Counted from the first letter of the stretch, positions 12,743-19,786 are shown. The stretch: 64,000 nucleotides of DNA from an uncultured Acidimicrobiia bacterium (GCA_963836205.1 CAWIIV010000006.1:512001-576000); one strand, 5' to 3'. Numbers and translations are program-made. The notes: a model not told the origin generated them from the letters alone.

Positions 12743-13711
12743 GTGCGATACCGGGAGGTCGGCGGGGCCCGGGTGTCGGTCGTCGGCCTGGGGACATGGC
12801 AGTTCGGGTCGGCCGAGTGGGGCTACGGCGAGGGATACGCGGCGGTGGAGGCCGACGCGATCGTCCGGCGGGCGCTGGATCTGGGCGTGAACCTGATCGA
12901 CACGGCCGAGGTCTACGGCCACGGACGGTCGGAGTTGATCGTCGGTCGCGGGATCGCCGGGCGGCGGGACGACGCGTTCGTGGCAACCAAGGTCTGGCCG
13001 GTGGCGCCTCTGGCCCGGGTGGTGGAGGAGCACGCCCGAGGGAGCGCGGCGCGGCTGGAGGTCGAAACCATCGACCTCTACCAGATCCACTGGCCGAACC
13101 CCTTGGTGCCATTGGGGATGACGATGGCGGGCATGCGCCGGTTGGTGGACGGGGGCGTCGTGCGCCACGTGGGGGTGAGCAACTTCTCCCTCGGTCGCTG
13201 GCGGGCGGCGGAGCGGCGGTTGGGGTCGCCGGTGCTGTCGAACCAGGTCCAATACAACCTGGTCGCTCGCAAACCGGAGCGGGAGCTGCTCGGGTACGCG
13301 GCCTCTTCCGATCGGCTGATCATCGCCTACAGCCCATTGGCCAAGGGCCTGCTCGGGGGACGGTACGACGATCGTCATCGGCCGTCGTCGCTGATCAGGA
13401 AGGTGAGCCCCCTGTTCATGCCCGAGAACCTCCGCCGGGTGAAGCCGTTGCTGGACGTGCTGCGGGAGGTGGCCGCTTCGCAGGGTGCGAGCCCCGCCCA
13501 AGTGGCCCTGGCGTGGGTGCTCCGCCGCCCGAACACGGTCGCCATCCCCGGGGCCCGGACGGTCGAGCAACTCGAGTCCAACGTCGCCGCCGCCGACCTC
13601 GACCTCACCGACGACGAGGCTGACGCGTTGACCGGGGCGTCCGACGCCTTCCACCGGGCGTCGATGGCCCGAGCCGCACCAAGCCTCTTGCGGAGGGCTG
13701 AAAGGGCATGA
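12743..13711 (+). CDS. Aldo/keto reductase
   Basis: GLGTWQFG, IDTAEVYG, ATK, IDLYQIHWP, GVSNFS, AYSPLAKGLL, AIPGAR. Confidence 0.95.
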   Translation: MRYREVGGARVSVVGLGTWQFGSAEWGYGEGYAAVEADAIVRRALDLGVNLIDTAEVYGHGRSELIVGRGIAGRRDDAFVATKVWPVAPLARVVEEHARGSAARLEVETIDLYQIHWPNPLVPLGMTMAGMRRLVDGGVVRHVGVSNFSLGRWRAAERRLGSPVLSNQVQYNLVARKPERELLGYAASSDRLIIAYSPLAKGLLGGRYDDRHRPSSLIRKVSPLFMPENLRRVKPLLDVLREVAASQGASPAQVALAWVLRRPNTVAIPGARTVEQLESNVAAADLDLTDDEADALTGASDAFHRASMARAAPSLLRRAERA

Positions 13712-13724
13712 TATTCCTTAGGCC

Positions 13725-14331
13725 GTGAGGCGCCTGGCGCTCGTCGGGATGGTGGTGGCGTTGCTGCTCCTGTCGGCCGCGTGCGGCGGCAAGGACGAAC
13801 CGTTGGGCCCCATCGGCTCGGTGCCCCAAGCCACGACAACGACCAACCCCTACGCCGTGCCGGAAGTCATCGACGAGGCCTACGTGAACCGAGTCCTGGC
13901 CGGGCTGGACCAGGCCTACGGCGACCTCACTCGCTTGATCGTGAGCACCGAGAACATCGTGCCCGAAGCGATCGACCGTCTCAAGACTCATCTATCGTCG
14001 ATGAGGATCAGTTTCAGTTAGCAAATCAACGCTATTCCAGAGACATCCTCGACCGAGGCCTCGAGACCATCCGGCCCAATCCCGGCAATAGGGCCACAAC
14101 AGTCAGCGAACTGATCACGGTCAGTGCACGGATTGTGTCTTTGCCGAGAGTGGACATGGACACCTCTGCGGTCACGATCTCGCCGAAACCCGTTTTCCGC
14201 ACCAGGTGGATCGCCATCGTCCCTCATGATCCCGTCGCTGGATCGAAGAACAATCCCACGGGATGGGTATTCGTCTACGAAGGATTCGAGAAGACTTTTC
14301 TCAACCGGCCGACCCATGCGCCGGCTTCTAG
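13725..14331 (+). pseudogene. Cassette copy 1 lipoprotein, frameshifted (about 13990, 14130-14145, 14295)
   Basis: Lipobox LSAAC; paralog of 17153..17746; pieces in ORFs 13725..14021 and 13781..14833; the restored C-terminus reads DFSQPADPCAGF*. Confidence 0.8.
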
Positions 14332-15212
14332 TCACCCTTGTGGTTTGCATTCATTCTCTGGCGATACCAACTGTTACCCTGGCACGACAGGCCGAGAACC
14401 CGGAGCAAACCTCGACTTACCCTGGTCGTGGCGCCAGTCAGAAGCGGCGGGAATTCCGGCGGTCAGGACGGTAGTAGCCGGGGCGGTGATGGCGCTCGAT
14501 GTGGAGAGCGCCGAGTCGAAACGGCCGACACGGCGTCGGTCGAACCCACGAAGGACTACGACCGACTCGGCGCCTTCGGTTCGGTACATTCCCTATGAAC
14601 GTGTCGTTCCAGGCGGCGGGCCCAATGGCGAAATGTGCAGTTGGCCGAAGTGGGTTCCGGCGGTTCCCGACGAACCACTCCCGTGGATCGCGGGTTTCCG
14701 AACTGACCAGAGCCATGGAGGACTCCTTGCCTCGGCTACCCGGAGCTGCCCGATCGAGCCGGGTTCCGAGTCTCGTCAGCTGAGACGCCAAGATCTATGC
14801 ACATCAGTACTGGCAACACATGCCGCTCCCTAGTCCTCAGCCGTACATCGCTCCAGGAAGGGCGATCACCGGGATGTTCGCCTACCTCGAGACTCGAGGG
14901 ACGACGACCCACACCTTCTCCGAGCCGGAGACGCCTTTTGGGCCACTAACGATCGTGGCGACCGGCAGGTACTACGTCGATTGGGGCGACGGGACCCGGA
15001 CCGGGCCACACTCCTCCGAGGGCGAGCCGTGGCCGGACGGCGACATCAAGCATGAGTACATCCATATCGGCTCGTACGACGTCGTGGTCACCGAGCGGTG
15101 GACGGCGACGTGGAGCTTCGGGGACCAGTCGGGCACGCTTACCGAGCTTCGCACCGTGGGGCGGATCGACGACTTCCCCGTCCAGCAGATTCAGGCGGTC
15201 GTCTTCCAGTAG
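14316..15212 (+). pseudogene. Cassette copy 1 secreted PKD-like protein, frameshifted in its N-terminal half
   Basis: MRRLLV start at 14316; GGGPNGEMC in a second frame; C-terminal 130 aa (14820..15212) almost identical to that of 17731..18561. Confidence 0.8.
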
Positions 15213-15214
15213 GA

Positions 15215-15265
15215 GTTCTGGGGCATGAAAAGGGGTGCCACGCTCCCCTTTTCATGCCCACAAAC
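15215..15265. terminator. Palindromic hairpin after cassette copy 1
   Basis: GGGCATGAAAAGGGG..CCCCTTTTCATGCCC inverted repeat; paralog at 18564..18614. Confidence 0.7.
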
Positions 15266-17746: not shown

Positions 17747-18561
17747 TCGTGGCCGGCACCATCATTTCCCTGCTCTCCGTTTCAGATCCCGCGGTCGCGG
17801 CTAGCCAACCGGTATGTCGTTACGTCCCGTCCCTCGCGGACTATCTCTGCGAGGATTTTGAAATCACCCAAACAGGCTCAGATCCGATCAATGGTGCAGG
17901 GCACCTTGCCGGCGGAGCCGATTCGACGGACGGTAAGGTATACGTGCCGTACAAGAAGGTCCTGCCTAGCGGCGGGCCGAATGGCGAACCGTGTTTGGTG
18001 ACCGCCTATCAGGAGGTATTCGAAGGCGAGGACCCCAGAGTCGTCGCGGATATTTCTAATCGATACATCGGCAACATTGGCGTCACTTACAATGACTGCC
18101 CCACGCGGCCGGACGAAGTGTTGGCGGCGGAAACCCCACAGACCTATGTACGGAGCTTCTGGACACGGCAGACGCTGCCGACACCTCAGCCCTATGTCGC
18201 CCCCGGACGCGCAATTACGGGGATGTTCGCGTATCTCGAAACCCGCGGGACCACGACCCATACCTACACCGACCCGGACACCCCCTTTGGCCCACTGACG
18301 GTGGTGGCCACCGGGAGGTACTACGTCGATTGGGGCGACGGGACCCGGACGGGGCCGCACTCGTCCGAGGGCGAGCCGTGGCCGGACGGTGACATCAAGC
18401 ACGAGTACATCCACATCGGCTCGTACGACGTCGTGGTCACCGAGCGGTGGACGGCGACGTGGAGCTTCGGAGACCAATCGGGCGTACTCGATGAGCTTCG
18501 CACCGTGGGGCGCATCGACTACTTCCCCGTGCAGCAGATCCAGGCGGTCGTGTTCCAGTAG
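17731..18561 (+). CDS. Cassette copy 2 secreted Cys-containing protein with a C-terminal PKD/Ig-like domain (intact, 276 aa)
   Basis: Signal peptide; four Cys in the N-terminal half; YYVDWGDG..HEYIHIGSYDVVVTERWTATW PKD-like signature; start overlaps the lipoprotein end. Confidence 0.85.
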   Translation: MRRLLVVAGTIISLLSVSDPAVAASQPVCRYVPSLADYLCEDFEITQTGSDPINGAGHLAGGADSTDGKVYVPYKKVLPSGGPNGEPCLVTAYQEVFEGEDPRVVADISNRYIGNIGVTYNDCPTRPDEVLAAETPQTYVRSFWTRQTLPTPQPYVAPGRAITGMFAYLETRGTTTHTYTDPDTPFGPLTVVATGRYYVDWGDGTRTGPHSSEGEPWPDGDIKHEYIHIGSYDVVVTERWTATWSFGDQSGVLDELRTVGRIDYFPVQQIQAVVFQ

Positions 18562-18563
18562 GA

Positions 18564-18614
18564 GTTCTGTGGCATGAAAAGGGGCGCCACGCGCCCCTTT
18601 TCATGCCCACAAAC
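18564..18614. terminator. Palindromic hairpin between cassette copy 2 and convergent thiH
   Basis: GGCATGAAAAGGGGCGC-CAC-GCGCCCCTTTTCATGCC perfect stem. Confidence 0.75.
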
Positions 18615-18616
18615 GG

Positions 18617-19786
18617 CTACGGCAGCTGACGGGCGCCGATGGTGTCCTTCCAGACCGGTTCGTAGCCGGCGGCTCGCAGCATGGACGCGACCTCCGACGG
18701 CGAGCGGTCGTCGGCGACCTCGAACTGGCCCTCGGCCTCGCTCGGCTCGGCGTAGCCGCCGGGTTCGGTGTGGGAGCCGGCCGACATCGACGTCACGCCC
18801 AACCGGAACACGCCGTCGCGCAGCCGGGGGGCCTCCCGGGTCGACAGCGAGATGCCGACCGTCGGTAGGCACAGCCGCAACGCGCACACGACCTGCACGA
18901 ACTCGGCGTCGGTCAGGGGGCGGGCCGGCTGATACTCGCCAGCGGCGGGGCGCAGGCGGGGTAGCGACACCGACACCTCGCATCGCCACCACCGCCGCAG
19001 CAACGCCGACGCATGGGCACCCACGGCCAGCACCTCTCGCCGCCAGTCGGGGACCAGTCCCAACAATGCCCCGATGCCCAGCGATCGCATCCCGGCCTCG
19101 GCCCCCCGGTCGGGCGCGGCCAGTCGCCAGTCGTAGTTGCGCTTCTTGCCCTTGAGGTGGCACGCCTCGTACACCGTGCGGTCGTACGCCTCCTGGTACA
19201 CGACCAGTCCCTCGCACCCCGCCGCCACCAGCCGGCGGTAGGTCGCGGTGTCCCACACCTGCACCTCCACCGACAGCGACGGGACCACGGGGGCCAGCGC
19301 CGCCACACAGGAGACCAGATACTCCTTCGACACGATCCGGGCGTGCTCGCCGGCGACCAGCAACACGTGCCGGAAACCCCGGGCCACCAGCTCCCGACCC
19401 TCGGCGACGACCTCGTCGACCGTCAGCGTCCGCCGGGCGATCTCGTTGCCGGCGGAGAACCCGCAGTAGGTGCACACCGACACGCACTCGTTGGACAGGT
19501 ACAGCGGCGCGAACAGGCGTACCACCCGTCCGAAGCGCTGCACCGTCGCCCGAGCCGCGGCCGCGGCCAGGTCCTCCAGACGATCCCCGGCCGCCGGCGA
19601 CAGGAGCACGGCCAAATCGGAGAGAGAGCGCCGACCGGCCCGAAGTGACCGGTCGACATCGCCAGGAGTGGCCGACCAAGCCCGCGCCACCAGCCCGGAC
19701 AGGTCGGTCGCCAGCAGGTCGGCCGCCGCCGTCCCCGACGGCACGCCGGCCGGCCGCGACGACAGCTCGACCGCGACAGCGGTCAA
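18617..19786 (-). CDS. thiH: 2-iminoacetate synthase ThiH (radical SAM tyrosine lyase)
   Basis: [79 protein letters not shown] start overlapping the thiG stop is inferred. Confidence 0.92.

Follow-up and report, generated by a model that had tools for sequence, protein, structure and literature searches.

Acidimicrobiia are abundant in soil and water and have hardly been studied. Here, we examine a two-gene unit within a 64,000-nucleotide stretch of DNA (hereafter the window) from an uncultured Acidimicrobiia bacterium (GCA_963836205.1, CAWIIV010000006.1:512001-576000), where genes for a lipoprotein and an overlapping secreted partner occur twice in tandem between an aldo/keto reductase (AKR) gene and thiH. 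Among described systems, polymorphic effector/immunity pairs are likewise adjacent, co-expressed, fast-evolving, and present in multiple copies, with orphan and dead copies among them. The window pair differs in having no toxin domain or delivery system and in that its gene order and the position of its variable part are reversed. Systems that combine an expressed gene with silent cassettes, such as pilE/pilS and vlsE/vls, resemble the window in pairing a live copy with an adjacent dead one, whose arms are conserved and whose core differs, and in the evidence of gene conversion between the two. In contrast to those loci, the window carries one extra copy, of full length and with its own start, and conversion is found in the arms rather than in the cores.

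At the protein level, the role of NTF2-like modules of the kind discussed below is to hold other proteins as partners, and PKD-like domains have proteins or glycans as ligands. VirB8, TrwG, and CagV, together with the intermembrane-space domain of ARC6/PARC6, share the predicted fold class of the lipoprotein (three helices on a curved sheet), are its top PDB fold matches, and are likewise membrane-tethered, outward-facing, and partner- or peptide-holding. They differ in that the matches are weak (E 0.01-0.06, TM score 0.3-0.45), the lipoprotein is anchored by a lipidated cysteine rather than a transmembrane helix, and no secretion or division genes lie near the pair. The Mtb12/LppK and DUF6318 families are similar to the lipoprotein in phylum, size, lipoprotein nature, and predicted fold class. 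They are the nearest named Atlas clusters for the homologue P0133 (feature scores 0.86-0.87, structure TM 0.39), although neither was matched in Pfam at E up to 1 by 60 relatives. We know of no overlapping PKD-like partner gene in these families. The secreted partner compares best with the PKD domains of secreted bacterial proteins, such as collagenase ColG, with which it shares a predicted beta-sandwich fold and a WGDG-type motif. Unlike those proteins, it has no attached enzyme domain and no Pfam match of its own, and the domain is single and C-terminal in all relatives listed (none longer than 326 amino acids among the 150 profile matches listed).

With a probability of roughly 60%, we favor the explanation that the locus holds a duplicated two-gene envelope unit with an intact downstream copy and a dead upstream copy, the unit encoding a tethered two-protein module with birth-and-death evolution. 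The architecture of this module is clear and testable. A tandem repeat with a dead copy would, taken alone, be ordinary genome dynamics; the locus also displays the turnover of a protein family through duplication or allele addition, arm conversion, decay, and insertion of a mobile element.

Tandem repeat of the two-gene unit

The repeat unit, ~1.9 kb long and arranged head to tail, extends from inside the AKR gene to ~280 nucleotides (nt) inside thiH and carries the two-gene operon. Its left end in unit 1 is 13570-13724, comprising the last ~140 nt of the AKR gene and a spacer, and its right end in unit 2 is formed by the last ~280 nt of thiH. Comparison by blastn aligned 13570-14004 with 16995-17427 at 78% identity (E 9e-94), 14824-15324 with 18173-18673 at 88.2% without gaps (E 0.0), and 16783-16999 with 18665-18890 at 73.6%. 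Near 16995-16999, thiH-internal sequence abuts AKR-internal sequence; such a joint is the signature of a head-to-tail repeat and gives the locus the structure of a tandem segmental duplication.

The downstream unit is intact. Following an AKR 3' stub and spacer (16995-17152, + strand; 77.7% identity with 6 gaps to 13570-13721), an uninterrupted open reading frame (ORF) encodes the copy 2 lipoprotein (17153-17746, +; 197 amino acids) and overlaps by 16 nt the ORF of the copy 2 secreted protein (17731-18561, +; 276 amino acids), an arrangement that qualifies the two as a translationally coupled operon. A hairpin (18571-18608; -38.9 kcal/mol, z -7.8) separates the operon from an intact thiH (2-iminoacetate synthase; 18617-19777, -; NCBIfam TIGR02351, 443 bits with the cut-off at 380), residues 1-386 of which are covered by one tblastn segment in locus L001.

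The upstream unit begins in an intact AKR gene (12743-13711, +; Pfam Aldo_ket_red, E 2.7e-69) that is 76-84% identical to its counterparts at L001, L002, L006, and L008. The copy 1 lipoprotein gene (13725-14331, +), delimited by frameshift-aware alignment, and the copy 1 secreted-protein gene (14316-15212, +), delimited by the ORF list, tblastn, and the same type of alignment, are both broken as assembled. The hairpin that follows (15221-15258; -35.5 kcal/mol, z -6.2, with none of 200 shuffles as stable) lies between convergent genes and is likely a two-way terminator. Beyond it, the last ~55 nt of a thiH copy (15270-15324, -; 3 mismatches to the live thiH end) is separated from a second, decayed thiH piece (16783-16999, -; 73.6% identity with 11 gaps to the live gene) by a 1458-bp insertion sequence (IS) of the IS256 family (15325-16782, -; NCBIfam transpos_IS256, Pfam Transposase_mut).

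An earlier note on this stretch had described two occurrences of a unit that opens with the 3' end of AKR, continues through the lipoprotein gene and the secreted-protein gene overlapping it to a hairpin, and closes with the 3' end of thiH. ORFs, repeat search, and blastn all uphold this layout. Direct comparison confirmed the identity of a 57-bp run in the two lipoprotein genes (13778-13834 and 17203-17259), and the hairpins proposed for both units are strong and far more stable than shuffled sequences. A thiH 3' end does close each unit as described; the one in unit 1, however, is split by the IS256-family element, which the note had not mentioned.

Frame disruption in the upstream copy

Reading frames were followed with a custom frameshift-aware protein-to-DNA alignment, using P0132 (lipoprotein) and P0001 (secreted protein) as queries. 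The copy 1 lipoprotein gene contains five frameshifts, near 13983/13986, 13996, 14126, 14146, and 14289, such that 13725-13985 lies in one frame, 13997-14284 in another, and the end in a third. In the copy 1 secreted-protein gene, the signal-peptide frame that opens at 14316 meets a stop at 14474. At least one frameshift separates the start frame from 14468, and four to six more follow; a segment at 14564-14638 is in another frame, and the original frame returns for 14796-15209, leaving the last 138 codons intact. With the copy 2 proteins as tblastn queries, homology in copy 1 was likewise spread over three frames. The same alignment and the same two queries detected no frameshift in either gene of copy 2.

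Altogether, copy 1 carries at least 10 frame-breaking indels in ~1.1 kb, all within the variable core. They are single-base changes that partly compensate one another within 10-20 nt. As a baseline, we followed 12 conserved window genes (~14 kb) against four syntenic genomes; 11 remain in a single frame and one is split (22757-24197). The indel density in the copy 1 core is thus roughly a hundred times that of neighboring genes. With five frameshifts in the lipoprotein gene and at least five in the partner gene, the upstream cassette as assembled is not an intact second system. The scaffold motifs listed in the earlier note are present, but in copy 1 they are scattered over different reading frames. 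We put the chance that copy 1 is truly inactivated at about two in three.

Conserved arms and a variable, low-GC core

In a 60-nt sliding comparison of the two units, identity is 63-78% in the AKR and thiH stubs, falls to 18-60% in the core, and rises to 92-97% at 13775-13835 and 14943-15324. Divergence along the genes is thus strongly non-uniform, and the core is strongly diverged relative to both the flanking stubs and the two conserved blocks, as the earlier note had observed. Its statement that changes at the 3' end of the secreted-protein gene are mostly synonymous also stands: over the last 138 codons, the proportions of synonymous and nonsynonymous differences (pS and pN) between copies are 0.40 and 0.085. 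The accompanying term "near-identical" is too strong for an amino acid identity of 87%. The cores are indeed more AT-rich than their surroundings, with GC down to 0.57 and 0.56 against ~0.70-0.76 around them.

Both the divergence and the composition extend to the family at large. Across 35 intact pairs, the N-terminal part of the lipoprotein has a mean amino acid distance of 0.46, a mean GC of 0.676, and a mean GC at third codon positions (GC3) of 0.81, compared with 0.62, 0.573, and 0.63 for its core. The N-terminal half of the secreted protein is the most divergent part (distance 0.75, GC 0.633, GC3 0.67), and its C-terminal domain is the least (0.38, 0.651, and 0.82, respectively). The mean GC of the flanks is 0.714, and in 33 of 35 loci the lipoprotein core lies at least 3 points below them. 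An AT-rich, diverged middle is therefore the family-wide build and not a sign of local import or a peculiarity of this locus. The proposed arrangement of adjacent variable parts bracketed by conserved arms likewise holds throughout the family, according to alignments and the distances among the 35 pairs.

A special coupling between the two cores is not supported. A partial Mantel test gave r 0.25 for the lipoprotein core against the N-terminal half of the secreted protein (5 of 2000 permutations as high), compared with r 0.43 for the two conserved parts (0 of 2000). Co-evolution of the variable halves, as envisaged earlier, thus shows no sign beyond linkage. In the variable parts, pS is 0.66-0.84 and pN is 0.23-0.62; given this saturation of synonymous sites, positive selection can be neither claimed nor excluded.

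Architecture and distribution of the protein pair

The copy 2 lipoprotein begins with a signal peptide and a lipobox (...IFGAC, residues 15-19), followed by a Thr-rich linker. The lipobox cysteine, Cys19, is shared by all 60 aligned relatives, which marks the protein as a lipoprotein, and a lipobox-like pattern is found in most of the 120 relatives listed. A very conserved helix follows the Thr-rich stretch, and further conserved cysteines occur at C134 and in a C-terminal Asp-Pro-Cys (DPC). The AlphaFold model (pLDDT 86.9, pTM 0.76) comprises three helices (residues 50-74, 79-88, and 92-107) and a four-stranded sheet (121-131, 134-142, 153-162, and 176-182). The top Foldseek matches in the PDB were VirB8, ARC6/PARC6, CagV, TrwG, the RsgI NTF2 domain, and ketosteroid isomerases, all of NTF2 type. 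The Atlas comparison, made with the stored homologue P0133 rather than the window protein itself, returned the same fold class (TcpC, Mtb12_C, DUF4440, and Tim44; TM 0.39-0.55). These leads agree with one another and point to an NTF2-like fold. The suggested likeness to DUF6318 (PF19843) did not hold in Pfam, where none of 60 relatives matched it at E up to 1; the lead is limited to an Atlas feature score of 0.87.

The secreted partner has a signal peptide and four conserved cysteines; its N-terminal half is variable, and its C-terminal domain is PKD-like. Two of the cysteines close a short hairpin after the signal peptide; a disordered linker then leads to a small helix/strand module with the other two, which precedes the C-terminal sandwich. 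Model confidence is 82.6 overall (pLDDT) and above 90 over the sandwich, whose best PDB match is the PKD-like domain of ColG (4aqo; E 7.2e-3, TM 0.60 by target, root-mean-square deviation 5.6) and whose best match in the viral set is a PKD-domain protein (E 1.5e-3). Pfam PKD (PF00801) weakly matched 19 of 64 relatives (best E 7.5e-4); the window protein matched no family at E up to 0.01 and stays below the curated threshold. Here too the leads agree, and they suggest a PKD-like fold.

Neither protein matched a family in Pfam, NCBIfam, PADLOC, or PHROGs, profile searches against PDB sequences were unproductive, and a full-text literature search found nothing relevant on the pair. A word-indexed search retrieved 242 secreted-protein relatives and 506 lipoprotein relatives; the named ones were all "hypothetical," and the organism labels seen were Actinomycetota or Acidimicrobiales metagenome-assembled genomes. 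A profile built from 64 secreted proteins matched 816 clusters at 50% identity, 570 of them at E up to 1e-10. A two-gene module of this breadth, with several copies per genome and no family name, represents a sizeable piece of unknown envelope biology.

A scan of a single genome for each species yielded 60 loci, the majority of them from Acidimicrobiia/Acidimicrobiales, with a few from Euzebyales, Nitriliruptorales, Egibacter, and unclassified Actinomycetota and one from a bin labeled Acidobacteriota; several genomes hold two to five loci. A lipoprotein gene lies directly upstream of the secreted-protein gene on the same strand in 49 of the 60. In ten of the remaining 11, the locus extends less than 500 nt upstream, and one (L050) has upstream sequence with no match. 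Among 39 intact pairs, the second gene starts inside the end of the first in 38, with overlaps mostly of 13, 16, or 19 nt. The codons of the lipoprotein's DPC (14305-14331 and 17720-17746 in the window, and in most loci) contain the partner's start codon (ccATGc), so that one stretch of DNA is constrained in two frames. Together with the lipobox cysteine, the overlap bears out the view that a single, translationally coupled operon yields both exported proteins. What is conserved as a unit is the lipoprotein/secreted-protein pair. Recurrent neighbors, namely AKR, dnaE2/imuB-like genes, and a BNR protein, are each limited to a few related loci.

From these features we infer, as the most likely function, an envelope module of two proteins that is tethered and has an exposed part that changes fast. 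The translational coupling points to a fixed protein ratio, and both proteins would be made in that ratio and exported. The lipoprotein would sit on the outer face of the membrane, where its NTF2 cone may hold the partner by analogy with VirB8 and ARC6, and the PKD-like domain of the partner may bind a conserved ligand of the envelope or the environment. The pace of change, the high copy number per genome, and the frequency of dead copies together point to birth-and-death evolution of an exposed surface module.

Two observations concern individual members of the set. At eight loci (L011, L022, and related ones), a dnaE2-like polymerase gene adjoins the pair and an ImuB-like (IMS family) gene lies a few kilobases away, which probably reflects the shared ancestry of those loci. 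Outside the window, a third secreted-protein paralogue, P0004 (232 amino acids as called), is 70% identical to copy 2, ends in ...VVFQ, and probably sits elsewhere on the window's own contig.

Gene conversion and turnover at the locus

Over the last 267 nt of the secreted-protein gene, the two window copies are 0.91 identical, whereas either is 0.77-0.84 identical to copies in other genomes. In the 147 nt before that, their identity to each other (0.71) falls within the range of their identities to the others (0.62-0.76). Other same-genome pairs behave similarly in the last 267 nt (L005/L006 0.89, L001/L007 0.87, L004/L005 0.84, and L004/L006 0.82), giving a same-genome range of 0.82-0.91, with the four closest pairs at 0.84-0.91, against a between-genome range of 0.75-0.86 that overlaps it. 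Both window copies end in ...VVFQ, compared with ...VVLR in eight other copies. At the other arm, the 57-bp identical run sits within an 88-nt stretch of 95% identity, compared with 71-83% in longer matches to other genomes. These comparisons indicate that the arms recombine within genomes. The earlier proposal of exchange by recombination in the arms is thus partly borne out: same-genome arm conversion is seen, but it affects the arms and not the cores. The block comprising the hairpin and 55 nt of the thiH stub (15213-15324 against 18562-18673) is 94.6% identical, whereas beyond the IS identity drops to 73.6% with 11 gaps; we infer that a conversion tract ran from unit 2 into unit 1 and ended at the IS.

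The closest relative of the copy 1 lipoprotein, P0132, is in another genome (80% identity, against 61% to copy 2), and synonymous differences in the cores are saturated; the locus therefore holds two old allele types. The copy 2 core is closest to P0123, P0125, and P0122 (69-71%). A whole-protein tree of lipoproteins did not resolve the clade with the window copies. Four other genomes have one pair each at the AKR-thiH position, with differing cores. The thiH and AKR stubs are 22-26% diverged from the live genes, and their identity to the window's own genes (74-78%) is much the same as to those of other genomes (70-81%). The event was therefore either the tandem duplication of the unit long ago or the arrival, next to the resident allele, of a second one with short flanks. 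In both cases the resident upstream copy would have been inactivated afterwards, and the IS256-family element later hit its thiH stub. The pattern of conserved ends and a divergent core has two causes. One is the build of the whole family: constraint acts on the PKD-like domain and on the lipoprotein's first predicted helices, with the lipoprotein's sheet half and the partner's N-terminal half evolving fast at lower GC3. The other is gene conversion, which keeps same-genome arms alike, here at 13775-13835 and 14943-15324. Similar turnover is found elsewhere in the family, at L007, L008, L001, L003, L017, and L032.

Three of these loci have structures of their own. At the same AKR-thiH position in L008 (10482-12084), an intact pair precedes a decayed stub of thiH, the remnant of an IS3-like transposase, a 70-residue piece of the secreted-protein gene, and thiH itself, which matches in two pieces. 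In L001 (6530-9426), AKR and the pair are separated by a gene for a nitric oxide reductase of the qNOR type (matching Pfam NorB_cytochrome_c-like and COX1), and the last AKR codons occur a second time just before the lipoprotein gene. The non-syntenic locus L007 (9384-11700) has, in tandem, a lipoprotein gene, a secreted-protein gene, a second lipoprotein gene, and a remnant with an internal deletion, in which a start that resembles a signal peptide runs directly into the final ~27 residues of the PKD-like domain.

Alternative explanations

Several observations weigh against the explanation we favor. With X placed at the breaks, the copy 1 lipoprotein reads without a stop codon and is 80% identical (156/194) to P0132, an intact relative, and 61% identical to copy 2; frame-corrected, it retains all 14 invariant residues and 30 of the 32 that are nearly invariant. 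The indels of copy 1 are all in the core, with none across ~790 nt of arms, a distribution compatible with very recent inactivation plus arm conversion and also with local assembly indel errors. A pyridine nucleotide-disulfide oxidoreductase gene (22757-24197, +) is split in two frames at ~23152-23169 and is a single ORF in all four syntenic genomes (82-94% identity by segment). The split reflects either recent pseudogenization or an indel of the assembly and bears on the trust to be placed in frameshifts of this contig. Regarding function, the fold matches of both proteins are weak, with none at Foldseek E 0.001 and the lipoprotein reaching at best E 0.01 (TM 0.3-0.45) in the PDB, and no neighboring gene recurs in more than 10 of 61 sources (60 loci plus the window), so that context gives no hint of function. 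The preserved residues, the stop-free reading, the second frameshifted gene, the single-base and partly compensating indels, and a codon-position GC signal still present in the copy 1 core would also fit a genome in which both cassettes function and the copy 1 frameshifts are local assembly errors, for example, a consensus of co-existing strains with different core alleles. The genome would then bear two divergent lipoprotein/partner pairs in tandem, as the earlier note pictured. We regard this as possible, though on balance unlikely: at least 10 indels in ~1.1 kb contrast with one in ~14 kb of neighboring genes, none in the copy 2 core, and one in the 1.3 kb of the IS transposase; by our reading, the N-terminal cysteine pair of the secreted protein is not recovered in any copy 1 frame; and dead or truncated family members are found in other assemblies (L003, L007, L017, and L032), that of L017 with short-read-style contig names. 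It is very improbable that the AT-rich core is a recently imported island. GC falls by 12-15 points in both cores and an IS adjoins them, but the same drop across many genomes and its tracking of the variable gene parts (GC3 0.63-0.67 against 0.81-0.82 in conserved parts) speak for a property of the genes. The least probable explanation considered is an assembly artefact that set two strain haplotypes of one locus in series. The contig apparently comes from a metagenome-assembled genome and the copy 1 core is of poor quality as assembled; against this, the truncated stubs meet inside thiH on one side and inside AKR on the other and share no homology where they join, they are gap-ridden and diverged beyond strain-level variation, the IS within the stub has a clean 9-bp target duplication, and two further assemblies, L008 and L001, have comparable stubs at this locus.

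As for what the pair does, a rather unlikely possibility is an undescribed, phylum-specific surface recognition module in which each lipoprotein binds only its own partner through the hypervariable halves. Several insulated pairs would coexist per genome, and turnover would be driven by phage, predators, or kin discrimination, a new cassette being added by arm recombination before the old one decays. If true, the window caught a replacement half-way. More doubtful still is a polymorphic effector/immunity module with the secreted protein as toxin and the lipoprotein as its immunity protein. Immunity proteins with an NTF2-like fold are known, as are lipoproteins that confer immunity to effectors acting on the envelope; the two genes of the pair are hypervariable neighbors that are translated together and occur in multiple copies; and L007 keeps a lipoprotein gene beside an internally deleted partner, resembling an orphan immunity gene. 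However, no toxin, peptidase, nuclease, or lipase family was found in Pfam, NCBIfam, PADLOC, or PHROGs, in agreement with the earlier statement that no toxin domain is recognizable. The variable part is ~110 residues long, partly disordered, and N-terminal; the conserved part is a binding-type PKD-like domain; and the putative immunity gene comes first. A secretion-system, Rhs, LXG, or CdiA context was not seen among neighbors of the 60 loci and the window, and no longer fused forms of the PKD-like domain were found, although this last point is weak evidence.

The insertion sequence and surrounding features

The transposase of the element in the upstream thiH stub matched NCBIfam NF033543 (transpos_IS256) with 156.8 bits against a cut-off of 150. 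The termini are imperfect inverted repeats (11 of the first 12 bases matching), and a 9-bp target duplication, GCCGGCGGC, is present at 15316-15324 and 16783-16791. The transposase, the terminal inverted repeats, and the short target duplication place the element in the IS256 family. One frameshift near 16104-16146 splits the transposase into overlapping ORFs at 16104-16715 and 15370-16146 (-). A second copy of the IS was found neither in the window nor in the 60 loci.

Rfam and tRNA scans of the 64-kb window returned no family above threshold and no tRNA, and among Rfam families a thiamine pyrophosphate riboswitch was likewise not detected, despite the presence of thiH-thiG genes. Other exported proteins are encoded nearby: a cupredoxin/plastocyanin-like protein (11146-11640, -), a DUF2330 protein (11565-13112, -), and an FG-GAP-repeat protein with many near-identical repeats (21250-22650, +).

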